In this document: positions 13,948 through 51,186 of the stretch, piece by piece
Position numbering within the stretch: position 1 is the first letter of the stretch
Layout of the letters: the number at the start of each line of letters is the position of its first letter
DNA from: Clostridia bacterium
GTDB taxonomy: Bacteria; Bacillota; Clostridia; Christensenellales; QALW01
DNA length: 64,000 nucleotides
Assembly: GCA_900769815.1 (NCBI GenBank)
Contig: CAAGID010000011.1
Location: 14,772 to 78,771 of the forward strand
Reading direction: 5' to 3'
The notes under the pieces: generated by a model
Databases searched by the model: none
What the model was told of the DNA's origin: nothing
Seen by the model: the letters and a program-made list of their open reading frames with translations, nothing else
Position numbers and translations under genes: made by a program

Positions 13948-13949
13948 AA

Positions 13950-13980: not shown

Positions 13981-14002
13981 ATATAATTATGTTAAAAAGT
14001 AC

Positions 14003-14031: not shown

Positions 14032-14050
14032 ACACACGTTGTTAAGAAGT

Positions 14051-14127
14051 GCTGATGTAGCTCAGTAGGTAGAGCGCATCCTTGGTAAGGATGAGGTTCA
14101 CGAGTTCGACTCTCGTCATCAGCTCCA
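14051..14127 (+). tRNA. tRNA-Thr (anticodon GGT), CCA encoded
   Basis: I folded the cloverleaf by hand. Acceptor GCTGATG/CATCAGC; D arm GCTC..GAGC; anticodon arm CATCC-TTGGTAA-GGATG; T arm ACGAG-TTCGACT-CTCGT; 3' TCCA. Confidence 0.85.
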
Positions 14128-14130
14128 TAA

Positions 14131-14158
14131 CCCCTGTTTTTTACAGGGGTATTTTTTT
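14131..14158 (+). terminator. terminator after tRNA-Thr
   Basis: CCCCTGT-loop-ACAGGGG followed by TATTTTTTT. Confidence 0.75.
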
Positions 14159-14171
14159 AGGAGTTTTTATT

Positions 14172-33695: not shown

Positions 33696-34394
33696 ATGAG
33701 TACATATTCTATTGCAGAATTAACAGTTAATATGGAGCCATTTGGTAAAACCGTTGTTCAGGCGGAAAAATATCTTATCGCTCCTAAAGAATCTGCAGAT
33801 ATTACACTTACGTATAGTATAGATAATATGAAACACTATCTTGCACATCATCCTGAAATTTCTGAAGAAAGTTACGTTTATATGCTTTTAGGAAAGAAAT
33901 TTGCAGAATGTTTGTTAGATTATGACGGTCTTGTACTTCATTCTTCTGCCATAGCATATGAAAATAAGGCATATTTGTTTTCTGCTGATTCAGGCACCGG
34001 TAAATCAACGCATACTAGCTTTTGGACAAAGTGTTTTGACGGTGCAGAGGTAATAAACGACGATAAGCCTGCCTTAAGACTGATGGACGGTATTTTCTAT
34101 GCATACGGTACTCCTTGGAGCGGTTCAACACCAATAAATCTTAACGTAAAAGTTCCCTTGCAGGCAATATGCTTTATTGAGCGTGCCGACAAAAATTCTA
34201 TTGAACGAATTACCGATAATGCTGAAATTATAAAGCTTTTTATGCCGCAAACGTTAAGACATGTTGGTAACGACAAAGCCGAAAAACTTATGCTTAATCT
34301 GGAAAAACTTATAAGCAATATTCCGTTCTATAAATTACGTTGTCTTCCCAACGAAGATGCCGCAAAATTAGCATATGAAATTATGTCAAAATAA
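33696..34394 (+). CDS. HPr-kinase-like P-loop protein (HprK-related kinase family)
   Basis: LVLHSSAIAYENKAYLFSADSGTGKSTHTS..NDDKPALR resembles the HprK C-terminal domain P-loop region. Its start abuts the rfbA stop (TAAATG). Confidence 0.6.
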   Translation: MSTYSIAELTVNMEPFGKTVVQAEKYLIAPKESADITLTYSIDNMKHYLAHHPEISEESYVYMLLGKKFAECLLDYDGLVLHSSAIAYENKAYLFSADSGTGKSTHTSFWTKCFDGAEVINDDKPALRLMDGIFYAYGTPWSGSTPINLNVKVPLQAICFIERADKNSIERITDNAEIIKLFMPQTLRHVGNDKAEKLMLNLEKLISNIPFYKLRCLPNEDAAKLAYEIMSK

Positions 34395-34487: not shown

Positions 34488-34649
34488 ATGATTAAATGCT
34501 GTATTTGTGATAAAGAAAAAAAGGAGCATATAACCGTTTTAGGAAAGGCCATATGCTCAGACTGTGAATGGAAAATATTAACCGAAAAAACACATTCTGT
34601 CGGTTATAATAAGTGTATTTCAAAATTAAAAAATATTTTCTCAACATAA
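34488..34649 (+). CDS. unannotated 53-aa Cys-rich protein, Gin/CsfB-like (anti-sigma-G)
   Basis: My own translation reads MIKCCICDKEKKEHITVLGKAICSDCEWKILTEKTHSVGYNKCISKLKNIFST. The CxxC..n..CxxC layout and the Y..n..LK.I tail resemble B. subtilis CsfB. GAGGTG sits 7 nt upstream. Confidence 0.65.
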   Translation: MIKCCICDKEKKEHITVLGKAICSDCEWKILTEKTHSVGYNKCISKLKNIFST

Positions 34650-34685
34650 AAAGCCGAGCAAATCGCTCGGCTTTTCATTTTTTTA
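34647..34685. terminator. bidirectional terminator
   Basis: AAGCCGAGC-AAATC-GCTCGGCTT with T tracts on both strands. It closes both the gin-like ORF and the large minus-strand operon. Confidence 0.85.
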
Positions 34686-35726
34686 CTAGCCAACCATACC
34701 TGAACGTTCAATACTCTGAACAAAGAACTTCTGACAAAAGCAGTAAAGAATAATGATAGGCGTTATATGCATTACCGTACACGCTGACTGATATAATGAG
34801 TTAAGAACTACGTCTCCGGGTTTATCAAGAACACTGACTACATACTTTGAACCCATGTCTACAATCTGTGTCGCCATAACTTTGGCGCTGGGGTTAAGCA
34901 TTGAGATATAGTTTCTGTCATTATACTGCCATACGAATGCAAACAAGAAAACTGTCACAAGCATAGGCAACGCGCTGGGGAGCATAACCTGAACGAAGGT
35001 TCTGAAAGGTCCTGCACCGTCAATATATGCAGCCTCTTCAAGCTCTTTGGGCTGGTTAACGAAATACTGACGGAGAAGGAATACGAATAAACCATTACGA
35101 TACATTGTTGCCGTTGCAGACAAAAGACCGATAGCAGTCCAACCACGTGTAAGATCAATATTGGGGATTGTTTTAAGTTGATCACCAAAAGAGAACATAT
35201 ACAAGGGGTTAAATGCCTGATATCTGAATCTCATAGCTTCAGTAAGCATCTGAATGGGCACCATCAAAGTAAAGATACACATAAGGAAGATGAAGTTGTT
35301 GCCCTTAAACTTAAATCTTGCAAGACCATAAGCAACTACCATACATGAGCACATCTGGAAAAGTGCAAACACAAATGAAGTTGTAAAAGAACTGAGATAA
35401 AGCTGTGGAATTTTTGCAAACTGCCACATAGCAATATAGTTGTTAACGTTTATAGCCGTGGGCACAAGAATAACTGTAGGATCGTAAACGTCCTGTTGTG
35501 ACATAAATGACGTAATAATCGTCAACAAAATAGGATAAACAACAAGATAACAAATACCAACAAGCAGCACTGTTCTCATTATTGCCCAAATAAAATTGAA
35601 TGTACGTTTACCAAATAAGGCACGCTTGAACTTCTGCCAAGGCGTAAGTGTAGGGATGACAAAGCTATCAACTTCTTCAGCGCCTACTTCGTTTGTAAGC
35701 TTAATTTTATCAAGTTTTTCCATCAT
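34686..35726 (-). CDS. carbohydrate ABC permease (MalG-like) of second pair, with extended N-terminus
   Basis: EAA loop LEEAAYIDGAGPFRTFVQVMLP. Start set at MMEKL, which follows GGGGGTGGAG. Confidence 0.8.
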   Translation of the reverse strand: MMEKLDKIKLTNEVGAEEVDSFVIPTLTPWQKFKRALFGKRTFNFIWAIMRTVLLVGICYLVVYPILLTIITSFMSQQDVYDPTVILVPTAINVNNYIAMWQFAKIPQLYLSSFTTSFVFALFQMCSCMVVAYGLARFKFKGNNFIFLMCIFTLMVPIQMLTEAMRFRYQAFNPLYMFSFGDQLKTIPNIDLTRGWTAIGLLSATATMYRNGLFVFLLRQYFVNQPKELEEAAYIDGAGPFRTFVQVMLPSALPMLVTVFLFAFVWQYNDRNYISMLNPSAKVMATQIVDMGSKYVVSVLDKPGDVVLNSLYQSACTVMHITPIIILYCFCQKFFVQSIERSGMVG

Positions 35727-35736
35727 CTCCACCCCC

Positions 35737-36627
35737 TTAGTTCTCATAGTAAACAAGCTTTGATATAATTCCTGCAACGGCAGCAATTACCACTGTTGTC
35801 ATCAGGAAATACATCCAGCCCATTGCCATACGGTCATAAGTTTCAACAACTGCAGGAGAGTTAATATACTCTAAAACCGGGTTTGTTGTTGAGCAAAGGT
35901 TTTCAATCATAATATAAACTGTGTTAACAAGAATCATTGGGCTTATCATCGGGAAGGTTATCTTCCAGAAGTTTTCCCAACCTGTAGCACCTTCAACCTT
36001 TGATGATTCAAAGATTGAGGGTGAAATAGTCTGAAGTCCCGCAAGGAAGATAAGCGTAGGAACACCTGCACCATTTATGATTCCGCTAAGTTTATCAAAT
36101 GCCGTACCGATAAATTGGCCAAAGGTACCGCCGATAGACTCTTGAATATTTCCTGCAAGGTTCATTGCCTGAGAACCAACTGATTCCATCTGACCTGCAT
36201 CAACACCAGTTTCGCCTGCAAGTAATAATGCTGCAACACCGGCAGAAGTAATAACAGGCATAAATAATACTGCACGGACAAATGTTCTTCCACGGAAGTT
36301 TTGGTTAAGAACGTTAGCCATTAGGAAACTGAATATCAATATGCAGGGAACAGTAATTATCATATCTGAACCTGCAGCAATAAGTGCATTGATATAGTCT
36401 GCCTGATTTTTATAAGCATCTACATATGCCTTAAAGCCATAAGGCTCAATATTGATAACATTTGTAACACTATTGAAAACCTGATCGTTAAAAGACAGAA
36501 CAAGTGCCGTGTAAAGAGGTGATATAACAAAGAATATAAAACCTAAAATGAAAGGAAGCACAAAAAGCCATCCTGACAAAGAACGTCTTGTCATCAAACC
36601 TAATTTATAACTTCTTGGTTTTTTCAT
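35737..36627 (-). CDS. carbohydrate ABC permease (MalF-like) of second pair
   Basis: N-terminus RRSLSGWLFVLPFILGFIFFVISP. EAA-type loop ESSKVEGATGWENFWKITFP. Confidence 0.8.
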   Translation of the reverse strand: MKKPRSYKLGLMTRRSLSGWLFVLPFILGFIFFVISPLYTALVLSFNDQVFNSVTNVINIEPYGFKAYVDAYKNQADYINALIAAGSDMIITVPCILIFSFLMANVLNQNFRGRTFVRAVLFMPVITSAGVAALLLAGETGVDAGQMESVGSQAMNLAGNIQESIGGTFGQFIGTAFDKLSGIINGAGVPTLIFLAGLQTISPSIFESSKVEGATGWENFWKITFPMISPMILVNTVYIMIENLCSTTNPVLEYINSPAVVETYDRMAMGWMYFLMTTVVIAAVAGIISKLVYYEN

Positions 36628-39488
36628 TAGTTATTTCCCCCTTTCGAAAAAGATTCTGCTTTTACAACTGTACCGTCTTCAGCAGTATAGTCAACTGAAT
36701 TGTAGTTTACATAAACAACTGTACCGTTTTCATATGTTACTTTATTTACATTTTCAGCTACATTTTCATGTTCAATAATAAATGAGCCTGCAGTTGATGA
36801 AAGAAGATCATTATATTCCTTATACATCTTAACTGCCTCATCGAACCAAGAACCGTAATGTAATGAGTACATACCTTCAAACCAAAGGTCCTGAACCGCA
36901 TCGTTAGTTTCATAGCACCAACGATAGTAAATGCCCGAACCTGCTTCAACTGCCTGAAGGAATGACTGACGGGTATCACCGTAAAGGTTGATGGGATCGC
37001 CTGAGTATTCAACACAGCCGTGAATTACCATCTGATAGAAGGGAACTGATAAATCGGCTAAGTTAAACTTACTACTCGTATTGCTGATTTCAAAAATTTC
37101 ATCAACGTAAGGAAGCATATAGGCGTTTGTTCCTTTTGCCATTACGTTAAGATTTTGGCCATAAATCTCTGCAACCTTTGCGTAAGTAACAGCAACCTCT
37201 CCCCTGTCTCTTAAATCTTTAACCTTATAGTTTCCGGGAAGATTATAGCCCAGGCTTCCAAGGCTTATGCCTTTAATATTAAGCTCGTTAATGTCTTCAA
37301 GAAGCTTTAATGAGAAGCACTTTGAATTATCATCACTGTAAATATCATAAATCTTTGTAGGTGAAACAATAGATGCTCTATTTTGCTCTGCTGCTGTGTT
37401 CCAGTCATCCCAATACTGATAGTGATATGCAACCTCACGGGTTACAAGACGGGATGCATCTGTAAACTCACTATATCCATCAAACATAGCCGAATTATAA
37501 ACGAAAGCAAGCTCTGTTTCAAAATAAAGATTCATTCCTAAAGATTCGGCCTTTGAAAGTAAGTTATTAAGTCCATCCTTACCGCCAAGCTCTTTTAACA
37601 CCTTAGCTCTATTAAATGCAGTGTTTCTTAAACCGTTATTTGCCCAGCCTTTGTAGTTAACTGAAACATTTTTGATTCCATTTTCGTTAAGCTTATCTAA
37701 AAGTTCTCCGCACTGTTCAAATGTTGTAATAGCCTTTGTTTCAGTATAAGGAATTCCTAAGAAAGCCGTTTTATGGTCATATGCACCAACAAGCTCGATA
37801 TTAAATGGAATTTCTGTATAATTCTTTTTAGTAAGAACGTTCTTTGAAATAAGATAGTCTCTGTAATACTGAGCCATTCCGCTATAATTTGCTTTATTGC
37901 CTTCAAGTAATGCAAATGTAACTGAGATATCATCAGTATTCATTTCTTTCTGATAAATACGTGCTGTTTTACCTGCATTCTTAAATTGAACTTCCTCGTA
38001 TTCAGTCATCCTAAATCTTGAATAACATCTGTTACGATCAACAATGTTCTTATTCTTTCCTGCAATATCAGCAATAATTGTTGCGTTTGTGTCTCCTGAT
38101 TCGATTATAGCAAACATAGCACTTTCGGCACGCTTGATGCCAAATACGGGAAGATATGCACCTTCATTAGCAAAAGGCTTCTGCAACGTCTCGCGTCCGT
38201 CATCAAGACCATAAAGTTGAACACGAACGTCACTTGTTATATTTGTTTTACCATTGTTAAAGTTAACGATAGCACCTGAACCATCAGGAACAAACATATA
38301 GCCTTCTTCTTTTTCAGAAGCAGATCCAAAGTACTTAAGAAGATCAATGGTTGCTATTGCAAGATTTTCTTTATCGTACTGAATTTCATTGCTGGAAATC
38401 GAAACGTTTAAACCATTTTCAGTAAGCTGATAGTCAACGGGAATCCAGAATGTTTTTGCAGCTTCACTAACAAAACCAAACTGCTCGTTGATTTCATCAC
38501 GCTGCTCAAGCGTCATTCCTGCAATGTTAATGAATGCATCTTCAATAACTCGCATAAAACGTGAGTTATTCCACTTTGTCTGGTCCTTGATAACATAAAC
38601 TGTCTTACCGTCGTTCAAAAGCTCTTCCATTTTGGGAGCAACTGCAAGATATTCGTTTTTCTTATCAGGCGTCCAACTCTTCCAGCTTGAAGGAGTAACC
38701 TTTGCATAAAGAGTACCCTTTGTAATATAGCCTGATGAAATAATATCGCCTGCATCTTTGAACTTCTGAGCAATCTCTTCAGCCATTTCACCTTCCATAC
38801 AAGTAGGAACAACGTAGTCAGGTTTAATGAGACCTAAAATGTAAATTACACGAAGATGTCCTTCATGATTAACCACATAGAACTGTTCTTTACCGTTTTC
38901 GGGATCCGAAATAAGAACACAGTCTGTATAGCTTTCAAGAGTTTTCTGACTTCCGTCAGCCTTGTTAAGATAGAAGATTGAAAGCTGACTTGCCATTTCG
39001 CCGGGAAGACCGGCGGATTTTTCAGCGGGAGCAGGGTTTGAGTACCAAACCTGACCGCTGGATTTGCTCTTTAATGCAAACTCAAGGTATTCCTCATTGA
39101 AATAAAATTCATAGTTTTCATTTTCTTCAACGAACTTGTAAACAGTTTCTTTAAGAGCAACCTGATCTGTAGATTCAGTATTTTCCTCTTTAGTATCAGT
39201 TGTTACCTCTGTATTTTCAAGTGTTTCAACTGTTGCATCTGCATTTTCAGGTGCTTCAGTAACAGTTTCGTCTGTTACAGTATCATTTTTCTCATTAAAA
39301 ACGTCACGTTTTTCAGTATAAACATCCTGACGAATATGAGGGGGCTTTTCATCAGAAAACTGGAAAAGCGGCTCTTTATTTGTAGGAGTAATATAACTGC
39401 TTGTAGTTTTATCTGCACATCCGGTAAATGCTATCGTCGGAAGGATAATCATTATAACGAGTAAGGCAGAAAGTATTTTCTTTTTCAT
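36627..39488 (-). CDS. ~950-aa surface lipoprotein, putative glycoside-hydrolase-like (possibly DUF5696 family)
   Basis: Lipobox IAFTG-C follows MKKKILSALLVIMIILPT. There is an acidic linker. The C-terminal half has TIM-barrel-like alternation (NVSVNYKGWANNGL..., VPFYQMVIHG). The family name is from memory only. Confidence 0.55.
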   Translation of the reverse strand: MKKKILSALLVIMIILPTIAFTGCADKTTSSYITPTNKEPLFQFSDEKPPHIRQDVYTEKRDVFNEKNDTVTDETVTEAPENADATVETLENTEVTTDTKEENTESTDQVALKETVYKFVEENENYEFYFNEEYLEFALKSKSSGQVWYSNPAPAEKSAGLPGEMASQLSIFYLNKADGSQKTLESYTDCVLISDPENGKEQFYVVNHEGHLRVIYILGLIKPDYVVPTCMEGEMAEEIAQKFKDAGDIISSGYITKGTLYAKVTPSSWKSWTPDKKNEYLAVAPKMEELLNDGKTVYVIKDQTKWNNSRFMRVIEDAFINIAGMTLEQRDEINEQFGFVSEAAKTFWIPVDYQLTENGLNVSISSNEIQYDKENLAIATIDLLKYFGSASEKEEGYMFVPDGSGAIVNFNNGKTNITSDVRVQLYGLDDGRETLQKPFANEGAYLPVFGIKRAESAMFAIIESGDTNATIIADIAGKNKNIVDRNRCYSRFRMTEYEEVQFKNAGKTARIYQKEMNTDDISVTFALLEGNKANYSGMAQYYRDYLISKNVLTKKNYTEIPFNIELVGAYDHKTAFLGIPYTETKAITTFEQCGELLDKLNENGIKNVSVNYKGWANNGLRNTAFNRAKVLKELGGKDGLNNLLSKAESLGMNLYFETELAFVYNSAMFDGYSEFTDASRLVTREVAYHYQYWDDWNTAAEQNRASIVSPTKIYDIYSDDNSKCFSLKLLEDINELNIKGISLGSLGYNLPGNYKVKDLRDRGEVAVTYAKVAEIYGQNLNVMAKGTNAYMLPYVDEIFEISNTSSKFNLADLSVPFYQMVIHGCVEYSGDPINLYGDTRQSFLQAVEAGSGIYYRWCYETNDAVQDLWFEGMYSLHYGSWFDEAVKMYKEYNDLLSSTAGSFIIEHENVAENVNKVTYENGTVVYVNYNSVDYTAEDGTVVKAESFSKGGNN

Positions 39489-39502
39489 ATTTTCCACCTC
39501 CA

Positions 39503-40144
39503 TTACCTTCTGAGCTCAAGTTCAAGATATATTGTATAGATAAAGTTCCATATTTCCTGAACAAGGAAGAAAAACAACATACCTAAGAACACGATAATAA
39601 CCATACCTAAAAGTATAGCAAGTAATATAAGGAACGTTTTACCGCCGCTATACTGGTGAGTCGTCATAGTACCTGTATAAAGCAGTATACCGGTCCAGCC
39701 ATATCCAACAACCGTAACAAGAGTTACAATAGTAGCCTCGTTAACAGTAAGAACATTGGTAAGCGGAAGAAGTATAATTTGTGAAAGGACAAGAGGTAAC
39801 ATTGAATATCCCGTATAAAGGAATACGTCCTTCATACTTCCTTCGCCATCAAAAAGTGTTGTAAGACCCCAGTTTGCTGCAACCCAAATAACTACAACAA
39901 GTGCTGTTGTTACAAAGCTTCCTACAATATTGATACGTTCCGGAAATACCTTTAACTCGTTAAAAGTGTAGTTGTTAAACTGACTATTAAGAATTCCCGT
40001 TAAAACGTATAATATAAGGAATATTACGGCTATATAGCCTCTGCCACGCTTTTCATGCTTTAAATCCCAGAAACCATCAAGAGGATGAGTTATAACATGG
40101 AAAGCATATTTTAGGTCTGCTCCGAATTTTTTAAGCAATTCCAT
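39503..40144 (-). CDS. Yip1-domain polytopic membrane protein
   Basis: N-terminus LKYAFHVITHPLDGFWDLKHEKRG followed by five hydrophobic helices, matching the bacterial YIP1-family layout. Confidence 0.65.
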   Translation of the reverse strand: MELLKKFGADLKYAFHVITHPLDGFWDLKHEKRGRGYIAVIFLILYVLTGILNSQFNNYTFNELKVFPERINIVGSFVTTALVVVIWVAANWGLTTLFDGEGSMKDVFLYTGYSMLPLVLSQIILLPLTNVLTVNEATIVTLVTVVGYGWTGILLYTGTMTTHQYSGGKTFLILLAILLGMVIIVFLGMLFFFLVQEIWNFIYTIYLELELRR

Positions 40145-41916
40145 TATAATTTTCTTCCTCCTGTTTCAATAAATTTCTTAAACTTTTTATACCAACCGGT
40201 TACAAGAATTGCAACTGTTGCAATAATAATTCCCCACATAATAAAAGGCATTGCTTTTTCAAGGATAAGGTCTCTGTATTTATAGAAAGCCTTTCCGTAA
40301 TCTTCCTGTGAATAACCCTTCATAAAATAGTCAGCAGCTTTAAGGAAGTTTTCTCTCTGTTCAGTTGTATCATTGTTCAATACTTCTGTTTCTGCTGCCC
40401 AAAGGTAATATATTCTACCAATACCCTTATAGGCAAGTGCTGAGTTTGAAGACATACCAAGGATCTTATTCCAAGCCTTTTCAGCATCTTCATAGCGTCT
40501 TTCCTCGTGGCTGTTAACTGCTTCTCGAAGAATAAGTCCATATTCAGTAGGTTTATAGGTCGTTATCTGTGCACCCATTGAGTCAAGAACTACGATAGTC
40601 TCATCATCAGTAAGAAGCTCTATTGCAACGGGATCAAGGTTTGTACCTTCAGTAAAACCTACCTGTTCCTGACGACCCGAAGAATTATTCTCTCCTACTG
40701 AAGTTTCCTTTTGTCCTAACGCACCAAAAACATATAATAATTCACCGGTGTTAGTGTAGGTAAAGATACGTCCTTTCTGTGAGTCAAGAATACTCGTGAG
40801 ACCGTTTTCAGAAACTGTAACATCACAAATGTATGAATATGAAGATCTATTTACACCGTCACCCAAATCGCCTGAAGGAGGTGTGATGCCTGTTCTTTTA
40901 AGAACGTCAGCACCTGCCGCATTAAGCTTTCTCAGAGCCGCACCGACTTCAGATGTTGCACCAGCAGTAAAATGTCCTACAAGGTCTTCAAGTTTAAGTT
41001 GTGAGACAGTACCATAAATAAAGCCTTGTTCATCAATTGTTATATTACTGTACTCAGTAGAAATATTCTGCTGCAGTTTATCTTTTGCTTCTGACGAGAA
41101 CAAACGATTAAGAAGTGATGAAAGCGTCTGCTTTGTTTTTGTAGCACCAAAGAACTTTGTAAATTCGCCGTTATTGTTAAGTTCAACTATACCCTGATAG
41201 CAGTCTCTTGAAACGACAAACATACGCATTGCATTATCAACAACAACCTTTAAAGGTTTATATTGAATGTTCGTTTTTGATGAAGAAGATGTTCCCTGCG
41301 AATTATTGTCAAGTTCAATTTCATCCTCGGCAATACCACTATCATCGCCTTCTTGTACATTTGTTGAAGGTGTTACCTCTTCAACAACTTCTTCGCCATC
41401 CTGCGTGAAATACTTTGAAAGATCAGGGTCATCATAAGTACGCTCAAAAACAAATGAGTCTGTTGTTTCATCATATTTGAAACTTACGATGCGTTTATTT
41501 TCCGTATCACAAACAAAGAGCAAATCAGTTGCTTCATGAACGAACAAACCGTTAGGTGAGTTAAAGGTCTCAACCTTTCCATCCTTTTCAAAGGAAGAAA
41601 TAATTTGTTTTACGGTACGCATATCTGTATCAAGCACAACAACACGGTTGTTTCCTGTATCTGATACAAGGATATAACCTTTACCGTCAAACTGTGTAAG
41701 ATCCTGAGGCTCTTTAAACGCTTTGCCTTCAAGATTTTCAAGACCGATTACAATACTATTTATAATCTGGTCGGGTGTATATGCCTGGGGGTCAGGATAT
41801 ACACCGCTTTGTGTAATTGTATAGTTCTGATACGGAGCTGCAAAAGCCGTAACCGTAAACATCAATGAAAGAATAACGGCAAGTACCAGAGATGCTGATT
41901 TTCTAAATTTCATCAT
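40144..41916 (-). CDS. secreted NHL-repeat beta-propeller protein with TPR-like region and C-terminal TM anchor
   Basis: Signal peptide ending in TAFA-AP. NHL-like blades (ILVSDTGNNRVVVLD, LLFVCDTENKRIVSF, IVVLDSMGAQITTY). Helical repeats. A terminal TM (MPFIMWGIIIATVAILVTGWY) followed by a basic tail. Confidence 0.65.
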   Translation of the reverse strand: MMKFRKSASLVLAVILSLMFTVTAFAAPYQNYTITQSGVYPDPQAYTPDQIINSIVIGLENLEGKAFKEPQDLTQFDGKGYILVSDTGNNRVVVLDTDMRTVKQIISSFEKDGKVETFNSPNGLFVHEATDLLFVCDTENKRIVSFKYDETTDSFVFERTYDDPDLSKYFTQDGEEVVEEVTPSTNVQEGDDSGIAEDEIELDNNSQGTSSSSKTNIQYKPLKVVVDNAMRMFVVSRDCYQGIVELNNNGEFTKFFGATKTKQTLSSLLNRLFSSEAKDKLQQNISTEYSNITIDEQGFIYGTVSQLKLEDLVGHFTAGATSEVGAALRKLNAAGADVLKRTGITPPSGDLGDGVNRSSYSYICDVTVSENGLTSILDSQKGRIFTYTNTGELLYVFGALGQKETSVGENNSSGRQEQVGFTEGTNLDPVAIELLTDDETIVVLDSMGAQITTYKPTEYGLILREAVNSHEERRYEDAEKAWNKILGMSSNSALAYKGIGRIYYLWAAETEVLNNDTTEQRENFLKAADYFMKGYSQEDYGKAFYKYRDLILEKAMPFIMWGIIIATVAILVTGWYKKFKKFIETGGRKL

Positions 41917-41930
41917 TTTGGGTTACCTCC

Positions 41931-42776
41931 TTAATCTTTCATACCTGACGTTGCCATTGTCTCGATGATGTTACTCTGCGAAATAATGAACGCTGTGATG
42001 GGAACCGCCATCATAATAACTGTAACTGCGTTGGCAACACCTTGACGTGCAATACCTGTTGAAACAATTTGTTGAAGTGCATAAGGAAGAGTTTTTAAAG
42101 ATTCACTCTGAATAAACACTGATGCACCTAAGTTCCAAAGCCCCTGAACTGAGAATATCATAAGTGTAAGCCAAGCTGACTTAACCTGAGGCATAACGAT
42201 TGACCAGAATATCTTAAAACTTCCTGCGCCGTCAATACGGGCTGCTTCAACAAGTGACCTGGGAATCTGCGACATAAACTGTTGCATAAGATACATGCCC
42301 ATAGGAGAAGCAAATGTGGGAATGATAATTGCCCAATATGTATCGATCATACCAAGTCCTGCCTTGATGATAAAAAGAGGAAGCCAAAGAACTGTTCCGT
42401 TAAACATAAGTGCCAATCTAATGATATTTGAGATAGACTTACTTCCAGGGAAAGTGTACATAGCAAGAGGATATGCACATAAAGAACACAAAACAATCTG
42501 ACCAAAGGTACCAACTGTGGTAATAAACACGGTATTAAATAAATATCTTGAGAAGGGTACCCAGGAATTTCCCATTAAAACAAACAAATCGGTATAGTTT
42601 GTTGTTATCCATCTTTTAGGTAATAACGTAGGCGGGAATTTAAATAATTCGTCCATAGGCTTAAAGGAGTTACCTACTGCATAAACCATAGGAAGAACCA
42701 TGAAGCAAGCAACTATGCAAAGGAATAAAATTCCTAAAATGTTACCTGCATTTGAACGGTTAACTTTCTTTGCCAT
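41931..42776 (-). CDS. carbohydrate ABC permease (MalG-like) of first pair
   Basis: EAA loop LVEAARIDGAGSFKIFWSIVMP. Confidence 0.88.
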   Translation of the reverse strand: MAKKVNRSNAGNILGILFLCIVACFMVLPMVYAVGNSFKPMDELFKFPPTLLPKRWITTNYTDLFVLMGNSWVPFSRYLFNTVFITTVGTFGQIVLCSLCAYPLAMYTFPGSKSISNIIRLALMFNGTVLWLPLFIIKAGLGMIDTYWAIIIPTFASPMGMYLMQQFMSQIPRSLVEAARIDGAGSFKIFWSIVMPQVKSAWLTLMIFSVQGLWNLGASVFIQSESLKTLPYALQQIVSTGIARQGVANAVTVIMMAVPITAFIISQSNIIETMATSGMKD

Positions 42777-42779
42777 AAA

Positions 42780-43721
42780 TTACTCACCCACCTTTGAAAG
42801 CATTTTTGCAATTAACTTATTAGCAACAATTTGTAACAAGAACAAAAGAACTGCTATTGCACAAGCATAACCAAGTTCCATTCTCTGGTTTGCATAGTCC
42901 TCAAGGTGATGCATAAGTGTATGAGCAACATAGTCCTGTGAAGGATAACCTACAAGCGCAGTAATTGCAGCGCCAACTGAGAATGCGCCAGAAATACTCA
43001 TAACAGCACCGAATAAAAGCTGAGGCTTCATATAAGGTAAGGTAATATACCAAAGTTCCTGCCATCTGTTCTTAACACCGTCAATAGCACCTGCTTCATA
43101 TAACGTGCGGTCAACGTTCTGAAGACCTGCAACGAAGGTAAGGAAACTAGTACCCAATGACGACCATAGAATAACTATCAAGCAACACGGCACAATATAG
43201 TCAACATTTTCAAGCCATTTAATGTTAGACATCGTAATACCTGTATTCATAAGGAAACCATTAAGAAGACCATATTGGTCAGATGAGAAGATAATCTTCC
43301 AAACAGGATAAACGCTGGCAAGTGAAGGTGCGTAATAGAAAAGAGTCATAACTGCTCTTGTTCTTCTGCCGAGCTCATTGATAAGCCAAGCAAAGAACAA
43401 TGACATTATGTAACCGCCGGGGCCGATAATAACTGCAAAGAATAAGGTATTCTTAAATGCGGTCATAAACAAATCATCGGCAGTAAAAAGACGGATATAG
43501 TTATTGAAACCAGTCCACTGGGGAGGCTCAAGTACGTTAAAGTACGTAAATGAGAAATACATTGCAACTATAACGGGAAGAATTGTAAAGGTTGCAAATA
43601 TTATAAGATAAGGAAGCATGAATAAATATAAACTGCCATTTTTACGCATTTCTTTAAACTGATATTTGAGCCAATCCTTAAAGAATGCTTTGTTTTTGGC
43701 TTTAGTCTCACTTTTAGCCAT
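42780..43721 (-). CDS. carbohydrate ABC permease (MalF-like) of first pair
   Basis: EAA loop LYEAGAIDGVKNRWQELWYITLP. Six TM segments. Confidence 0.88.
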   Translation of the reverse strand: MAKSETKAKNKAFFKDWLKYQFKEMRKNGSLYLFMLPYLIIFATFTILPVIVAMYFSFTYFNVLEPPQWTGFNNYIRLFTADDLFMTAFKNTLFFAVIIGPGGYIMSLFFAWLINELGRRTRAVMTLFYYAPSLASVYPVWKIIFSSDQYGLLNGFLMNTGITMSNIKWLENVDYIVPCCLIVILWSSLGTSFLTFVAGLQNVDRTLYEAGAIDGVKNRWQELWYITLPYMKPQLLFGAVMSISGAFSVGAAITALVGYPSQDYVAHTLMHHLEDYANQRMELGYACAIAVLLFLLQIVANKLIAKMLSKVGE

Positions 43722-46700
43722 TATTCTACCGCCTTTCCTGTCATTTGCTCGATCTTCTTCTTGAATTCTTCACGTTTACGATCGATTTCTCTGTCAATTT
43801 TGCTTACATATTCAATAAACGTTGTATTGGGGTCTGTACCGGGATTATTAATAACTTCTTTCCAAGCAAACTCAATGTTACGTGCAGTATAATAACCGCC
43901 GGGAACCTGAGGAATAGCTTTGCAATGCTTCCACTGCTCCTGAATCATTACCATTGACTGCTTATCCCAAGGAAGCTTTGCCATTGCCTTAAGGTTTGCG
44001 GTCTGATAACGAGCTGCAGGACCAAGCAAGCTTTCGATTTCAGTACCGAAACGATACTGTGCATCTTCGCCAGTCCACCACTTTATAAACTCCCAAGCAC
44101 GCTTAATTCTGTTTCTTCCCTCTTCTGTTGAAGAATCTATAGAAAGCATTACACAAGCTGAAGTTGTGCTTGCACATGAGTGATCAACAACAACTTTACC
44201 GTTTTCATCATAAATAACATTGCCATCAGCATCCTTCTGAACTGTACCGGGAACAAGGGAGAACTCCCAAAGGCCCTGAATTTCAGGAGCAAATACTGCA
44301 AGCTGTGAATACTGACTGTAACTTGCAATACCTATCGGAACTTCACCTGTACGGAAACGGTTAGCAAAATCATATGTATTGGGTAAGTTATATAATGTAT
44401 AGAATTCTGTCCATTCCTTAAATGCATCAAGAGCTGCATCCGAATTAAGGTCTGTTGAATCTCTGTCCTCAGTATAATACTGACCGCCCTTCTGATAAAG
44501 AAGTGTAGCAAAAGTGTTATTACCTGAACCAACTGCACCTACAACAGGAACAGGCATCGCAAAGGTCATCTGCTGATTCTGAAGGTGCCCAATTATATTA
44601 TATACTTCATCCCAAGTCTGAGGAGCTTCAAGTCCAAGTTCTTCAAGAATATCTGTACGGTAGAAGGTCATAAAGAAATCCTGTGTCTCAGGAACACCAT
44701 AGATACCATTACCAAAGGTAAAGGGATCAACAGCACTGTGAGCAAAACGTTCAGAATTGAGAAGAAATTCCTCGTAATCAGGGAAAAGTTCTTTATCTGC
44801 AAGATTCATAACTGCACCGCGGAACGCATAGTTAATAGCATCAACTGCACCGCGTGACAAGCATATTTCTGGTCCGATTCCTGACAAAACAGACGGCAAT
44901 AGTGAGCCGCTGGCAACAAGACGGGTACTTACTACAATTCCTGTTTCTTTAGTAAACATATCATCAATAAGCTGTTTAAGAATTGTCGCATTATCTCGTG
45001 AGCCTGTAAGACCCGCGCCTGTTTCAAGCCATACCACAACGGGTTCCTGACCATCTTCGGCAACCGTACCGCCGATGTTATCGTAGTCTTCTGTAAATGA
45101 AGCTATAAATGCACGGATTTCATGAAGCATCTTTGCAAAGAAGCTTGCATCAGGGTTAGGCATACCGTTACCGTTAACTGTATCTTCCGTGGTAACTACG
45201 AAGTAGTCAAGTTCCAAAGGATTCTGGCTCATATCGTTAATCCATGTACCCATAGAAGCGATAGAGTCTTTAAGGTTTGAGAACAATGAAGGTACAACGT
45301 TATGGTCAATCTGAAGAATCTTTATAAAATTCTCTCTTTCTTTTTCGGTCAATTCATTTGCAGCGAACTTCTTCTCGATAAAAGCTACCATTGTCTCGAT
45401 ATTCTCAAGTTCGTCATCAGTAACATCACCAAAACGAAGTTTAATAGCATTTTCAAACTCGGCAACAGAATCTTTTTTAATCATTCTTTGAAGAAGAAGC
45501 AATGTGCTGTCAAGACTTGTAAGCTGTGCGCTGATTTCTTTACCATACTCTTCCATCATTTTGTTTTTTAGATTCAAAAGATTGTAATATTCTTTTTCAA
45601 GAAGATCAAGTGCGTCAGGAACCATAGCATCAAGCATATAGCTCTTGTTTACGTCAGGCGAGGCGCTTGTAATCATAAGAATTCTTCTGTAAGCGTAATT
45701 AAGCTGAGTGAGGCTGTTTTCCGCATCTGCAAGGAAATCACCCATCTTGCCTAAAGTTGATTCAAGACGAATTGTATTTTTTCCTTCGTTAAGATAGAAA
45801 AGAATTGTTTCGCCGTCTTCAGTTTTAGGCGTATACATCTTAAAGCTGTTTCCATATTCAAAAACAAGATTATTAACTTCAGCACAAGGAACAACACCGT
45901 TAACGGTAAGCTTACGTGTTGTACTTAAACCGCTTAAAGTATTCTGACGTGCCTTAAAGCTGATAGCATAAAGACCAGCTTTCTCAACGGTAAAAGACCA
46001 CTCAATCCAATCATTAGGAGCCTGCCATTTATCAGCACCGATTGTGTTATAACGAATCTTTGCATGATGATAAGGAACCGTTGAAGGAGATGACCTATCA
46101 GTAATAGCGTACAATGTAGGTGATGATTTAAGAGTATTAAATGTAGGATCCTTAGTTGCATCATATGCAGTTTGATCCATAGGACTTATATAATTATTGT
46201 ATGCATTAACATCGGCAAAGAAAGCCTGCTTATCTAAGAAAGCCTCAGGTGCATGTAAACCTTCAGCCTGAATGATAATCTCACATTCGCCTGTAACCTT
46301 CTCATAACCATTTGCCTCATATTCCTTTTTTAACTCAGAATAAGGCATCGCTGATTTGATCTGATGAAGCATGGCATACTCAACAATCATACCTTCTTTT
46401 ATTGCTTCGAAAGCAAGAACATGTTTACCTGCTTCAAGGTAGAATTTGAAAGGTTCACTTTCATATCCCATATAATCACGAGCCGAAACAGTCTGCCACT
46501 GACCTGTTCCACTCTGATACGGACGCTTTTCATTGCCGGTCTGAGGATCAATTATAAGAAGACCAGAATCCTTCCATACACGCTCAAGGTTTATCTGACG
46601 TGCTTCATAAAAGGGAACTTTGTAATCAATATAAACTCTACGTTGTACTGCCGAACTGTTACAATTAACAGTAATCTGTTCACCGTCTTTTTCATAAGTT

Positions 46701-47182
46701 AAATTTTCATAAGCATAGTATGAGAAGGTAAGATTATACCAACCGGATGTTTCAACGTCAACTACCCAGCCGCAGATTCCTTCATCATAAAATAAAGCAC
46801 CATCTCTCGCATCAGATAAATGTTCTGATGATACGTTTACCATAGGAAGGCTTCCTATGATTTCGCCTGTTTTAGGATCAAACTGAACGGCATCTTTACC
46901 CTCCAATTTAATTTCAACGTCAGGCATAGCAGTATCAATTACGGAAGATTGATACGTTTTATAGTCAAACGTATTGCTGATTGCCTCATCAAAAGCAGTT
47001 GCCTCAGGCAATCCCTTCTTTTCACCGCTCTCATCTTGTGTTGTGCTTTCTTCTGTTACATCTGTAGCAACTTCCTGATTAAGAGTATCTTCGGGAGCAG
47101 CATAAGCTACGCATGAAAATACCGAAATTGCCATTGATGCCACAAGAACAAAAATAAGCACCTTGTTTCGCAAAGACTTCAT
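43721..47182 (-). CDS. 1153-aa secreted protein: two CBM-like modules + helical region + CUT1-type solute-binding domain
   Basis: Signal peptide. Two modules share the pattern G(W/L)YN/A(L/I)(T/S)F ... YL(E/N)(A/E)GK(H/N)..(L/I), typical of beta-sandwich CBMs. The C-terminal ~460 aa are SBP-like ([33 protein letters not shown]). Confidence 0.75.
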   Translation of the reverse strand: [1153 protein letters not shown]

Positions 47183-47284
47183 GTTATTCCTCCTGAATGC
47201 TAAATTAAATCTGTAAAACTTGGAAACAGCCCCTTATATAATAATGAGTATGTTTTTTACAGACTGATACATATTATCTACCCT

Positions 47285-47313
47285 ATCATACCACTATCTT
47301 GCGTGAAAGTCAA
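47285..47313 (-). promoter_or_regulatory. candidate promoter of the eight-gene operon
   Basis: On the minus strand, TTGACT (47308-47313), 17 nt, TATGAT (47285-47290), with a TG at the extended -10 position. This leaves a ~95-nt 5' UTR. Confidence 0.55.
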
Positions 47314-47342: not shown

Positions 47343-47362
47343 TTGAGTTAATTCGAACTCAA
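47343..47362. repeat. perfect 7-bp inverted repeat TTGAGTT-n6-AACTCAA
   Basis: Read directly from the sequence. It is flanked by a T tract on one side and an A tract on the other, and lies in the divergent intergenic region ~30 bp upstream of the -35 of the big operon. Confidence 0.6.
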
Positions 47363-47498
47363 AAACGCCCTATTTATGGGGAATTTTATATTTATTTAGC
47401 GCTTGTTTATAATTTTTTTACATTTTCCCGTCATCTTTTTCACTTATTTTTTTCGAAAAATATTTGATAAAAAATTTTTTGATTTTTGCAATTTACTA

Positions 47499-47580: not shown

Positions 47581-49368
47581 ATGAAGACACTTAAGCGACT
47601 TTTTTCATACTATGTTCCTTACCTGGGTATCATGATTCTTTATCTGTTTATGGGCGCTTTGATGGTTTCCCTGGCAATGCTATTGCCTCAGATCACAAAG
47701 CACATAACAGGTTCAGTTATTCTTGATGCCCCTTTTTCGTTTTTTGGTTGGTCGCCCTCAAAGGAACAGCTTTTTCTTGCACTTGCTTCATTGTGGATGT
47801 TTATCGTTATAATAAGACAAGGTATTGCATATCTGCGTTCTTATCTTATGACCAGAGCTTCCATAAAAGCCGTTTGCAAAATGCGTGAAGATATTTTTGA
47901 CAGGCTCTTATGGCAGTCGGTTTCCTTTATTCAAAAGGAAAATACGGGAAATATTCTGACCATTCTCAGTGGCGACGTTGAAATGATAAAGCTCTTTTTC
48001 ACAAGTACTTTGCCAGCAATAATTGAAGCTGTTTTTGGTTTTATTTTTGCAAGTGTAATGATTTGGCAAATGAGTCCTTTAATGGTTATTACCGCCTACG
48101 TATTTACTGTTCCTTTGTTTATCATATCAAAGCGAATGAGCAAGATATTCTCAAAGTGGTATCATTTCGTACGTGAAACAAGTGCCGATTTAAGTATGGT
48201 AACTCAAGAAAATATCAATGGTATAAGAATTGTTAAAGCCTACGCACAAGAAGAACAAGAAAAGAAAAAATTTGCAGAGAAAAACGCGAATTACAGATAT
48301 CACGCAATAAATTATATGGTATATTGGTGTCGCGAATATCTGCCATTTGGTATTGTGAGCCATCTTCCCAATATTACTCTCACTCTTATCGCCGCTTTAT
48401 TGGTTGTTAACAGTAATAACGGTGCTGTAGGCAGTTTTACTATGACTCTTCCTGAATTTATAGCTGTAACAGGTTATATCAGTTATATTCTTGTCCCCTT
48501 TACACAGGCAAACAACTGGATAAACAACGCTCAACAAGCTGTAACAAGTGCTGAAAAAGTTTTTAAAGTGCTTAATATTGGTTCAGATATAGCTTCAAAA
48601 CCCAATGCAATAAAACCTGATATAACTAAAGTAGACCTTAAATTAACCAACGTATCATTTTCACTTGAAGGCAAGAAAATTCTCAATAACATAAACATTG
48701 ATTTGCCACAGGGAAAGACTCTGGGTATAATAGGTACCACCGGCAGCGGTAAGACAATTCTTACAAATATTATGGCACGCTTTTTTGACGTTTCATCAGG
48801 TAAAGTTACTATAAACGGCGTAAACGTTAAAGATATGGATTTAACCACCCTTCGCTCGTGTTTTTCTCCTGTTTTACAAGACGTCTTCTTATTCTCCGAT
48901 ACCATTGCAAAAAATATTGCTTTCGGTCGTCCCAACGCAACATATGAAGATGTGATGAAGTGTGCAGAAGTTGCTCAAGCACACGATTTTATAAGTAAAA
49001 TGCCTGATGAATACAATACCATTGTCGGCGAACGCGGAATGGGTCTTTCCGGTGGACAAAAGCAAAGAATTTCCATTGCTCGTGCACTTTTATACAACTC
49101 CCCTATTCTTGTTTTTGACGATGCAACAAGTGCTCTTGATATGGAGACGGAACAGCTTCTTTATAAACGTCTTAAAGAAGAATATTCAAAGCAGAGCCGT
49201 ATAATTATTGCCCACAGAATTTCATCAGTAAAGGACTGTGATGAAATCATTGTTATTGAAAAAGGCAGTATTATTGAACGAGGCACACACCAGGAGCTTG
49301 TTGATAAAAAAGGTCGCTATTATGAGACTTACAAAGAACAGTATTCAACTGTCCTTAACTCATTGTAA
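47581..49368 (+). CDS. ABC exporter half-transporter (heterodimer subunit 1)
   Basis: Six-TM domain followed by an NBD (GTTGSGKT, LSGGQKQR, ILVFDDATSALD). Confidence 0.9.
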   Translation: MKTLKRLFSYYVPYLGIMILYLFMGALMVSLAMLLPQITKHITGSVILDAPFSFFGWSPSKEQLFLALASLWMFIVIIRQGIAYLRSYLMTRASIKAVCKMREDIFDRLLWQSVSFIQKENTGNILTILSGDVEMIKLFFTSTLPAIIEAVFGFIFASVMIWQMSPLMVITAYVFTVPLFIISKRMSKIFSKWYHFVRETSADLSMVTQENINGIRIVKAYAQEEQEKKKFAEKNANYRYHAINYMVYWCREYLPFGIVSHLPNITLTLIAALLVVNSNNGAVGSFTMTLPEFIAVTGYISYILVPFTQANNWINNAQQAVTSAEKVFKVLNIGSDIASKPNAIKPDITKVDLKLTNVSFSLEGKKILNNINIDLPQGKTLGIIGTTGSGKTILTNIMARFFDVSSGKVTINGVNVKDMDLTTLRSCFSPVLQDVFLFSDTIAKNIAFGRPNATYEDVMKCAEVAQAHDFISKMPDEYNTIVGERGMGLSGGQKQRISIARALLYNSPILVFDDATSALDMETEQLLYKRLKEEYSKQSRIIIAHRISSVKDCDEIIVIEKGSIIERGTHQELVDKKGRYYETYKEQYSTVLNSL

Positions 49369-49383
49369 AGGAGGTGGCAATAT

Positions 49384-51186
49384 ATGGCACGTAACAGGTA
49401 TATGGACGACGAAAAAGAGACTAAAAAATTTACCATAGTCTTATTAAAACGCCTACTAAAATATATGTTTCCTTTCAAAAAGAAATTTATTTTAGGCTTA
49501 TCTCTTCTTGTTGTAAACGTACTTATTTCACTTATATGGCCAATGCTTGTTCAGTGGCTTATTGATAACGTACTTAATATTGAAGGACATTTTGCAAACA
49601 GCGTAGCCGCAATTCTTTCTTCAATTGGTATAGTTTCGCTTATCCTTTTTATAGACGTATTTATTGCCTCCAAAAGAGTTCTTATTATAACCGAGCTTGG
49701 ACATTTCACAATTCACGATATACGAAAAGATATCTTCGACCACGTACAGAGCCTCGATTTCAAGTATTTTGACGACAGACCTGCCGGTAAAATTCTTGTT
49801 AGAATAACGTCCTACGTTGACGGACTTTCGCACTTGTTATCAAGTTCCCTTTTACAACTTATAGTCGACGTTTTTACATTGCTTTGCATCATAATAATAT
49901 TGTTTTCAATGAACGTAAGGCTTACACTTTTAAGTCTCTTAATACTTATTCCCCTTTGTGTTTTCATATCTGTAATGAGAAAAGTAATCGCACAAGGTTC
50001 ACGCCGTGTAAGAACAAAAGTAAGTAACCGTACTGCCTATATACACGAAAACCTTATGGGAATTAACGTGACACAAGCCTTCAACCGCCAAGATGTTAAC
50101 AGTAAAGAACTTGTAAGACTTGATGATGACGTTAATAAAGTATATACCAAATTTATTCTTGCCGTTTCTTCTATGGGCCCTGCCGTTGATATTTTTTCAA
50201 CTTTAGGAACTATTCTTGTATACTTCTTTGCAATTAAATTCATTTCAAACGGCGAAATGACTTTGGGGGCACTTACAGCATTTACTTCATATATGTCACG
50301 TTTCTGGCAGCCTATTTCATCATTTACAAATATTTTTAATCAGTTCAGCGAAGCAGCCGGAAATATTGAACGCATTTTTGAAACCATAGATACCCCTGCT
50401 GAAATTTCTGATGCCGAAAATGCCTACGATCTCCCCGACATTAAGGGCAGTGTCGAATATAAAAACGTTTCCTTCTCTTATGATAACGAAACAAACGTTC
50501 TTGAAAACGTTTCCTTTAAAGTAAAGCCCGGCGAAATGATAGCACTCGTCGGTCCTACCGGTGCGGGAAAAACCACCATAGTCAGCCTGCTTTCACGTTT
50601 TTACGATGCAAATGATGGCACTGTTGAAATCGACGGACACAACGTAAAAGACGTTACCCTTAATTCATTAAGGACTCAGGTTGGCGTTATGATGCAGGAT
50701 TCATTTATTTTCTCGGGCACCGTTATTGATAATATCCGTTATGGCCGTCCTGATGCAACGGACGAAGAATGTATTGCCGCTGCTGAAAAGATATATGCCT
50801 CTGAATTTATTGAATCCTTGCCAAAGGGCTATTATACTAAACTTGAAGAACGAGGTGCAGGACTTTCAGCAGGACAAAGACAACTTATATCCTTTGCCCG
50901 TGCTATTCTTGCCGATCCGAAAATTCTTGTACTTGACGAAGCTACTTCGTCAATTGATACAAAAACAGAAATGCTTATTCAACAAGCTTTGCAAAAGCTT
51001 TTAGAGAACAGAACAAGTTTTGTTATCGCACACAGACTTTCTACCATCAAGCGTGCAGACCAAATAATGTGTATTGCCAATAAAGGCATTGCCGAAAAGG
51101 GTACTCATCAGGAGCTTATGGATATGAAAGGCATATATTACGAACTAAATATGAGCCAATATAAAGCATTGGTTAATAAGGAGTAA
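49384..51186 (+). CDS. ABC exporter half-transporter (heterodimer subunit 2)
   Basis: Six-TM domain followed by an NBD (GPTGAGKTT, LSAGQRQL, ILVLDEATSSID). Confidence 0.9.
   Translation: MARNRYMDDEKETKKFTIVLLKRLLKYMFPFKKKFILGLSLLVVNVLISLIWPMLVQWLIDNVLNIEGHFANSVAAILSSIGIVSLILFIDVFIASKRVLIITELGHFTIHDIRKDIFDHVQSLDFKYFDDRPAGKILVRITSYVDGLSHLLSSSLLQLIVDVFTLLCIIIILFSMNVRLTLLSLLILIPLCVFISVMRKVIAQGSRRVRTKVSNRTAYIHENLMGINVTQAFNRQDVNSKELVRLDDDVNKVYTKFILAVSSMGPAVDIFSTLGTILVYFFAIKFISNGEMTLGALTAFTSYMSRFWQPISSFTNIFNQFSEAAGNIERIFETIDTPAEISDAENAYDLPDIKGSVEYKNVSFSYDNETNVLENVSFKVKPGEMIALVGPTGAGKTTIVSLLSRFYDANDGTVEIDGHNVKDVTLNSLRTQVGVMMQDSFIFSGTVIDNIRYGRPDATDEECIAAAEKIYASEFIESLPKGYYTKLEERGAGLSAGQRQLISFARAILADPKILVLDEATSSIDTKTEMLIQQALQKLLENRTSFVIAHRLSTIKRADQIMCIANKGIAEKGTHQELMDMKGIYYELNMSQYKALVNKE

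Follow-up and report, generated by a model that had tools for sequence, protein, structure and literature searches.

A conserved Bacillota operon with two CUT1-type permease pairs and an NHL–Yip1–DUF5696 accessory set, probably for glycan uptake

Gene content and transcription signals

The DNA analysed here, referred to as the window, is a 64-kb stretch of the genome of a Clostridia bacterium (contig CAAGID010000011.1). It contains an operon of eight minus-strand open reading frames (ORFs) that code, in order of transcription, for a giant binding protein of 1153 amino acid residues (aa), a MalF-type and a MalG-type permease (F1 and G1), a secreted NHL-repeat protein, a Yip1-family membrane protein, a DUF5696 lipoprotein and a second permease pair (F2 and G2). 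The operon is a copy of a widespread module, probably for glycan import, with an obligatory NHL–Yip1–DUF5696 accessory set; the module is already named in the literature. An earlier interpretation made from the letters alone (the sequence-only reading) had described eight ORFs from 47182 to 34686, transcribed as one unit, and had seen in them a composite machine for glycan capture, processing and import. All eight ORFs were confirmed at these coordinates (Table 1), and profile searches recognised SBP_bac_1, BPD_transp_1, NHL, Yip1 and DUF5696 domains in their products, with F2 below threshold.

The claim that the genes are joined by anything from a 1-nucleotide (nt) overlap to a 14-nt gap was confirmed by inspection of the junctions. 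One-base TAATG overlaps were present at 43721, 40144 and 36627. A fourth lies at 39503, unless the DUF5696 protein starts at ATG 39488, which is the likely start judging from a GGAGG box in front of it and from agreement with database protein P0001 (953 aa). F1 and G1 were separated by 3 nt, G1 and the NHL gene by 14 nt, and F2 and G2 by 10 nt, taking ATG 35726 as the G2 start codon. The longest possible G2 ORF, which begins at TTG 35786, would run into F2. Each start was preceded by a purine-rich stretch resembling a ribosome-binding site.

A promoter scan by itself carried no weight, as it gave 51 hits with 49.7 expected, no more than in shuffled sequence. The sigma-A-like promoter proposed for the operon is credible because its −35 and TG-extended −10 hexamers were invariant in an upstream alignment of seven diverged members of the clade to which the window belongs (the window clade), while the spacer and the surrounding intergenic DNA had drifted. 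A block of about 25 nt directly after the −10 box was near-invariant in the same seven members, although their proteins were only 60–80% identical. This block contains the imperfect palindrome GATA-N5-TATC; it may serve as the operator of a regulator whose gene lies elsewhere, or it may be a conserved 5′ leader. The proposed terminator (AAAAGCCGAGC-GATTT-GCTCGGCTTTTT) was canonical in form. No strong minus-strand terminator was found inside the operon with a terminator scan, and when the operon and leader were searched against Rfam, only sub-threshold chance matches at the terminator came up. The clade-conserved promoter, the terminator, the tight junctions and the recurring gene order described below make a single transcription unit well supported at the level of sequence.

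Table 1. Predicted features of the operon, in order of transcription; positions are those of the window.
Feature	Positions	Strand	Evidence
Promoter (−35 TTGACT, 17-nt spacer, TG-extended −10 TATGAT)	47285..47313	-	Promoter scan, upstream alignment of clade members
Conserved block of ~25 nt directly after the −10 box, GGGTAGATAATATGTATCAGTCTG	47260..47284	-	Upstream alignment, 7 clade members
Giant binding protein, 1153 aa	43721..47182	-	Pfam SBP_bac_1, AlphaFold2 model, Foldseek
F1, MalF/UgpA-type permease	42780..43721	-	EAA loop YEAGAIDGV; BPD_transp_1
G1, MalG/UgpE-type permease	41931..42776	-	EAA loop VEAARIDGAG; BPD_transp_1
Secreted six-bladed NHL beta-propeller with TPR-like helical region and C-terminal membrane helix	40144..41916	-	Pfam, ortholog profile, transmembrane prediction
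Yip1-family membrane protein	39503..40144	-	Pfam PF04893, transmembrane prediction
DUF5696 lipoprotein, three-domain GH129/GH101/GH31-like fold	36627..39503	-	Pfam, AlphaFold2 model, Foldseek
F2, divergent MalF-type permease	35737..36627	-	EAA loop ESSKVEGATG; BPD_transp_1 sub-threshold
G2, MalG-type permease with N-terminal extension	34686..35726	-	EAA loop EEAAYIDGAG; BPD_transp_1
Intrinsic terminator (7-bp GC stem plus A/T pairs, then T-run), directly after the stop codon	34647..34685	-	Terminator letters, terminator scan

Conservation of the gene order

Relatives of the DUF5696 protein were found by a pattern scan in one genome per species, which yielded at least 586 species-level genomes with a relative. 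The best 80 of these relatives were taken for comparison, and 83 loci were classified against the eight window proteins. All 80 belonged to the Bacillota, including Paenibacillus, Cohnella, Bacillus-like genera, Lachnospiraceae, Oscillospiraceae, Hungateiclostridiaceae and Defluviitaleaceae. The identical eight-gene order was present in 59 of the 83 loci, and in nine more the order was the same with the NHL and Yip1 genes fused into one reading frame. Recurrence of the order, named beforehand as a check on the operon, was thus strongly borne out (68/83). The order was kept down to protein identities of 30–40%, and identity to the window fell to 31–57% across these loci. In the nearest clade members all eight genes were intact, at 61–96% identity. 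Twelve of the remaining 15 loci were cut by a contig end, leaving L047, L071 and L076.

Two full copies of the module each were found in Cohnella yongneupensis (L046, L023), Paenibacillus baekrokdamisoli (L061, L063) and Anaerotaenia torta (L019, L075), and name lists hint that some Paenibacillus species have as many as three.

Permeases and binding proteins

The Pfam family SBP_bac_1 matched the giant binding protein only at aa 732–1042 (64.5 bits; cut-off 26 bits). An AlphaFold2 model (predicted local distance difference test, pLDDT, 81) indicated, from the N-terminus, a signal or anchor helix, a disordered linker, two CBM35-like beta-sandwiches (aa ~91–273 and 392–476), a helical bundle (480–652) and a CUT1 oligosaccharide-binding domain (715–1153). 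The C-terminal fold superposed on sophoro-, cello- and cyclo-oligosaccharide binding proteins (Foldseek, template modelling score 0.7–0.8), and the beta-sandwiches matched CBM_35 or Golvesin_C in Pfam searches with homologs of the protein. About 150 extra residues in the window clade form a disordered linker and an additional helical hairpin and are no new domain.

BPD_transp_1 was above the Pfam cut-off in F1, G1 and G2. F2 matched UgpA/MalF models and keeps the signature E-S-S-x-x-E-G-A. The four EAA motifs quoted in the sequence-only reading were all present, in line with its statement that none of the permeases is decayed, and permease orthologs sorted cleanly into the right class. Both pairs thus showed two BPD_transp_1-type subunits with EAA loops, which together with an SBP_bac_1-fold binding protein characterise a CUT1 importer. 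Because F1 and F2 were only 22.5% identical, and G1 and G2 25%, the two pairs are, on sequence comparison, ancient paralogs. A recent tandem duplication was rejected on the F1/F2 identity, and a decayed duplicate pair because F2 and G2 are intact, conserved and ancient.

In most related loci (65–68 of 83) the module was accompanied by a second binding protein, an SBP_bac_1 lipoprotein of about 472 aa (63 loci by clustering, 68 by profile). Its gene has the orientation of the module and immediately precedes or follows it. No homolog of it was found in the window, and it was absent within 10 kb in clade members L004–L014 and in L017. Since it adjoins most related loci and is missing from the window clade, the ancestral design is one of two complete importers, and the lone binding protein of the window reflects a clade-specific loss or relocation. 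The idea that one binding protein serves two translocons as a principle does not hold for the module at large, where the second protein is usual and co-varies with F2/G2.

Co-variation was assessed with a mirror-tree analysis (partial Mantel test) on 56 loci with all nine proteins, in which regression removed the phylogenetic signal common to all proteins and taxon permutation gave the significance. The internal controls gave residual correlations of 0.50 (F1–G1) and 0.43 (F2–G2). The giant binding protein correlated with F1 (0.41) and G1 (0.39), and the 472-aa protein with F2 (0.25) and G2 (0.35), against −0.01 and 0.09 for the latter with F1 and G1. NHL correlated with DUF5696 (0.59); DUF5696 also correlated with F2 (0.34) and G2 (0.26), and negatively with F1 (−0.30). 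These values hint at a pairing of the giant binding protein with F1/G1 and of the 472-aa protein and DUF5696 with F2/G2, with the reservation that mirror-tree correlations can stem from shared evolutionary rate classes rather than from contact.

Locus L076 (positions 1179–14920; uncultured Clostridia, FIZI01000044) held a half-module that lacked the giant binding protein, F1 and G1. It consisted of a LamG-like 996-aa protein, a GH130 enzyme, an NHL/Yip1 fusion, DUF5696, F2 and G2; the small binding protein was present twice, once as a split gene. Because this half-module keeps the accessory trio with F2/G2, in agreement with the co-variation, the trio seems to be tied to the second translocon.

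Accessory proteins

Taken alone, the NHL protein gave a weak Pfam NHL match (32.7 bits; cut-off 20 bits). A profile built from its orthologs matched six-bladed NHL propellers (PknD sensor, Pizza designs) with E-values down to 1.9e-69; five to six stretches were matched on the Pizza and PknD propellers, and TPR proteins were matched too. The protein ends in one membrane helix (aa ~555–582). At aa ~170–215, between blades 2 and 3, an acidic, Ser/Thr-rich low-complexity insert was observed only in the window clade (partly in L014) and was absent from Paenibacillus-type orthologs.

The Yip1 protein matched PF04893 with 75.7 bits (cut-off 28.6) and had five hydrophobic segments, predicted to be transmembrane helices. 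Fusions of NHL and Yip1, present in the nine loci mentioned above, occurred in at least five separate DUF5696 lineages, and fusions of about 685 aa formed at least 120 database clusters. A homolog search with such a fusion returned only Paenibacillus/Cohnella-type proteins among its best 120 matches. In the fusions the N-terminus of Yip1 comes directly after the NHL membrane helix, which fixes a topology with the propeller outside and the Yip1 N-terminus inside. The recurring fusions are Rosetta-stone evidence for Yip1 as the membrane holder of the propeller.

The DUF5696 lipoprotein has the lipobox AFTGC. DUF5696 was its sole Pfam assignment (E = 9e-179), and no glycosidase family was found in Pfam at E ≤ 5. 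The family is large, with 3999 clusters at 50% identity (E ≤ 1e-30), and a literature search found no paper mentioning DUF5696 or PF18952. The AlphaFold2 model (pLDDT 82) consisted of an N-terminal beta-sandwich, a (beta/alpha)8 barrel and a C-terminal beta-sandwich, as the fold of glycoside hydrolase (GH) family 129 requires. The best Foldseek matches of the model were GH129 structures (5opq, E = 1.5e-32; 5wzq, E = 1.3e-24; NagBb, E = 1e-24), followed by GH101, GH31 and GH36. With the GH129 and GH101 enzymes NagBb (5wzn), ZgGH129 (5opq) and EngBF (2zxq) the protein shares the three-domain fold (Foldseek E = 1e-32 to 1e-15) and, by profile, a stretch of about 130 aa around barrel strands 2–3 (E = 5e-6). 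It differs from them in forming a separate Pfam family, in not conserving the candidate nucleophile position, and in being anchored as a lipoprotein and extended by a further region at the N-terminus. At the sequence level, the family profile found NagBb only over barrel strands 2–3 (E = 5e-6). The DUF5696–GH129 match covered 67–130 aa (E = 5e-6 to 4e-5), which falls short of family-level similarity of the catalytic domain, and with full-length or barrel-only profiles against solved GH129 structures only strands 2–3 aligned, the catalytic half being without a match.

Seven residues (D407, D434, W620, R767, N793, D817 and E853) were essentially invariant in 203 DUF5696 members. Clan-related enzymes carry the nucleophile at the end of strand beta-4. 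Positions 750 and 758, at the end of the predicted beta-4, were both Asp in 119 of the 203 members (59%), and were Ser and Asn in all 43 members of the window clade; these candidate catalytic positions were placed by secondary-structure register, without three-dimensional superposition. By strand register, the invariant N793 and D817 are further candidates. Because the candidate acids are replaced by Ser and Asn, hydrolysis by the window-clade protein is doubtful.

Relation to known transport systems

In the usual view, a Gram-positive sugar importer of the ATP-binding cassette (ABC) type consists of a single binding protein and two permeases and draws on a shared ATPase. The module is a larger fixed unit, made of twin translocons, Yip1, an NHL propeller and a glycosidase-like DUF, and is often present in several copies per genome. 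Compared with canonical CUT1 systems (MalEFGK2 and the importers of MsmX/MsmK-using Firmicutes), the window operon shares the SBP_bac_1 domain and the EAA-loop permeases and, by analogy, would share an ATPase provided in trans. It differs in having two permease pairs with three obligatory accessory genes between them, and in a binding protein that is about three times the normal size and has CBM-like domains and a helical stalk.

The closest described counterpart is the xylan degradation locus of Caldicellulosiruptor (Anaerocellum) bescii, which begins xloEFG-X-GH129-axoFGE (Athe_0174–0181; PMC8579813). There, Athe_0174 is a binding protein, Athe_0175 and Athe_0176 are permeases followed by an NHL-repeat protein, Athe_0178 is a putative GH129, Athe_0179 and Athe_0180 are permeases, and Athe_0181 is a binding protein (PMC8579813). 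The locus is described as two predicted xylo-oligosaccharide transporters, XloEFG and AxoFGE, around the NHL protein and the 'GH129'; the genes were induced on xylan and Avicel and were assigned to the XynR and AraR regulons, their C. saccharolyticus orthologs are Csac_2419–2412, and the distantly encoded MsmK (Athe_1803) is the proposed shared ATPase (PMC8579813). Binding of XynR to the operator of the operon has been measured, and the 14-gene operon is present in 11 genomes of the order (PMC12285236). Xylan-linked induction was also reported for the C. saccharolyticus genes (PMC5658599).

The order of binding protein, two permeases, NHL, GH129-like protein and two permeases is the same as in the window, matched by annotation, and like the window operon the locus is one operon without an ATPase in cis. 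It differs in ending with a second binding protein, AxoE, in being followed by xylanases and in being under XynR/AraR control, of which the window has none. One gene is annotated where the window has NHL and Yip1, so that by annotation the locus corresponds to the module in its nine-gene form, with NHL as one gene. The transporter substrates in C. bescii were predicted from expression only. Metagenomes scanned for the XynR operator as published, together with its flank, gave no matches. The window operon had been put forward as a candidate for an undescribed system. Its gene order is in fact already annotated in the Caldicellulosiruptor locus; what stands is that the literature read contains no biochemical characterisation of any component and does not discuss the NHL and GH129-like proteins further. 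A literature search joining Yip1, NHL and solute-binding proteins gave nothing relevant, and neither Yip1 proteins nor accessory components of ABC transporters appear in a broad review of bacterial glycoside transporters published in 2026.

A bacterial Yip1-family protein encoded with an ABC transporter is also known from the YknWXYZ system, in which YknW modulates the assembly of the Bacillus YknXYZ exporter (PMC4887032). However, YknYZ is a MacB-type exporter and not a type-I importer, and YknW has no NHL partner. With the Sus-like utilisomes of Bacteroidota (SusCD, surface glycan-binding proteins and glycosidases) the module shares the logic of encoding surface capture, an enzyme-like lipoprotein and a transporter together. 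It is also paralogously expanded, with copies beside different glycosidase families, as the utilisomes are. The likeness is one of analogy only, as the two kinds of system have neither their proteins nor their membrane architecture in common.

Proposed function and alternative readings

Among the related loci, 27 were flanked by LacI regulators and 23 by AraC-type response regulators, and the flanks held GH43, GH10, GH26, GH38, GH2, GH53 and GH30 enzymes and an esterase. The module therefore sits in loci for different hemicelluloses, which argues for a generic platform whose specificity is set by its binding proteins. A role in glycan capture and import is supported by these hemicellulase neighbours, by the glycosidase-like fold of DUF5696 and, in the giant binding protein, by the CBM35-like domains and the binding domain of oligosaccharide type.

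Starting from the observed gene content, folds, conservation, fusions and co-variation, we consider it probable that the operon is a conserved Bacillota glycan-uptake module in which two CUT1 importers and three accessory proteins work together as follows. The giant binding protein and F1/G1 would form one sub-module, in which a polysaccharide or large oligosaccharide is retained at the cell surface by the CBM35-like domains and the C-terminal domain hands oligosaccharides to F1/G1. F2/G2 would form the other, in most species with their own ~472-aa lipoprotein binding protein, and would work with the DUF5696 lipoprotein, the extracellular NHL propeller and the membrane-embedded Yip1. NHL–Yip1 would act as a scaffold or assembly factor that places DUF5696 beside the second translocon, where DUF5696 may trim or merely bind the glycan. 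Transport would be inward, of xylan-derived substrates in Caldicellulosiruptor, and an MsmK/MsmX-type ATPase encoded elsewhere would drive both translocons. No importer-type ATPase was found within 10 kb of the module in the 83 loci, only exporter-type ABC proteins; by analogy, supply in trans fits the proposal for MsmK of C. bescii. In the window clade, either the giant binding protein or the accessory set would have to serve F2/G2. Of the composite machine originally proposed, the conserved unit and the fit with capture and import stand, and processing is doubtful in this clade, in which the candidate acids of DUF5696 are missing.

Several observations weigh against this reading. F2 reached only 22.4 bits with BPD_transp_1, below the cut-off of 26.4 bits. 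L047 departs from the gene order without a contig end to explain it, its upstream genes being undetected in a draft region of overlapping ORFs. In L071 (Paenibacillus rhizoplanae) the module is otherwise complete and F2 is split into ORFs of 129 and 192 aa, which could be a frameshift, a pseudogene or an assembly error. The loss of both acidic positions from DUF5696 of the window clade, the matching of the C. bescii locus by annotation and not by sequence, and the possible contribution of rate classes to the co-variation belong here as well. So does the lack of any CAZyme, regulator or MalK/MsmX-type ATPase in the window; the latter two had been reported missing from the operon, and with none of the three nearby, the window context therefore points to no substrate. 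The window copy is, as far as its sequence tells, unusual in having no second binding protein, no local regulator or glycosidase neighbours, and a DUF5696 protein with replaced candidate acids. It also differs from a Gram-positive polysaccharide utilisation locus in having no local transcriptional regulator, whereas regulators flank the related loci.

A bolder version of the module reading is that the eight or nine proteins form one membrane supercomplex, a Gram-positive counterpart of a utilisome. Yip1-anchored NHL would dock the GH129-derived lipoprotein on the second translocon while the CBM-bearing giant protein feeds the first, and Paenibacillus and Clostridia would have duplicated and re-tuned the complex for different hemicelluloses. 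We put this forward tentatively, as conceivable and rather doubtful. If true, it would provide a first function for DUF5696 and for a large group of bacterial Yip1 proteins, and the window clade would show a type-I importer without a classical binding protein of its own.

It is unlikely that DUF5696, at least in the window clade, is a non-enzymatic, glycosidase-derived binding or docking protein that replaces the 472-aa protein and feeds F2/G2. Such a receptor would agree with the replacement of both acidic positions in exactly the 43 clade members that lack the second binding protein, with the variability of the candidate acidic position in the whole family (Asp 121, Ser 55, Thr 15), with the co-variation with F2/G2, and with the lipoprotein nature of DUF5696, which Gram-positive binding proteins share. 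However, both losses coincide in a single clade and so amount to a single event, which is no correlation. The invariant D407, D434, R767, N793, D817 and E853 could form an active site, and the catalytic positions were assigned from secondary-structure register only. To our knowledge, no type-I importer accepts a receptor without the SBP fold.

The operon could also be two ordinary, independent CUT1 importers side by side, with three unrelated genes in the middle and no coupling. Each half does resemble a standard importer, with its own binding protein in most genomes, and the C. bescii annotation names two transporters. This is nevertheless improbable, as the order is identical in all 68 complete loci from Bacilli and Clostridia at about 30% identity, stop and start codons overlap at every middle-gene boundary, NHL and DUF5696 co-vary mutually and with F2/G2, and the half-module of L076 retains the accessory trio with F2/G2. 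Recycling or remodelling of the cell's own surface glycans (secondary wall polymers, exopolysaccharide) instead of uptake of external plant glycans would suit the position of the clade operon among housekeeping and envelope genes (penicillin-binding protein, RodA, nucleotidyl-transferase) without hemicellulases or a sugar regulator, but is very improbable, given that close relatedness explains the clade synteny, modules of other lineages are flanked by hemicellulases and sugar-responsive regulators, and the C. bescii version is induced by xylan.

With the uptake-module reading preferred, the role of the accessory trio, once known, would give a function to the DUF5696 clusters and to many bacterial Yip1 proteins. 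It would also explain the capture of hemicellulose fragments by major degraders of plant fibre in soil, rumen and gut. In Caldicellulosiruptor, whose xylan degradation operon begins with the module, it would offer a handle for engineering.

Genomic neighbourhood

The neighbours of the operon in the window were housekeeping genes (Ile-tRNA synthetase, pseudouridine synthase, nucleotidyl-transferase, RmuC, penicillin-binding protein, RodA, Dus and signal peptidase). Since these flanks are syntenic in the clade, a mobile or defence island was rejected. A divergent heterodimeric ABC exporter pair (47581–51186, plus strand; ABC_membrane and ABC_tran, 595 and 600 aa) keeps its position clade-wide and is probably unrelated to sugar import. 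Between it and the operon (~47360–47425, minus strand), a small hairpin, CCCCATAAATAGGGC, with a T-run was conserved in the clade, and an invariant AAATGTAAA motif was conserved across the clade in the same intergenic region. The plus strand immediately beyond the operon's downstream end (33696–34394) encodes a clade-conserved protein of 232 aa without a Pfam family, whose homolog in L004 contains a GTGKST P-loop-like motif.

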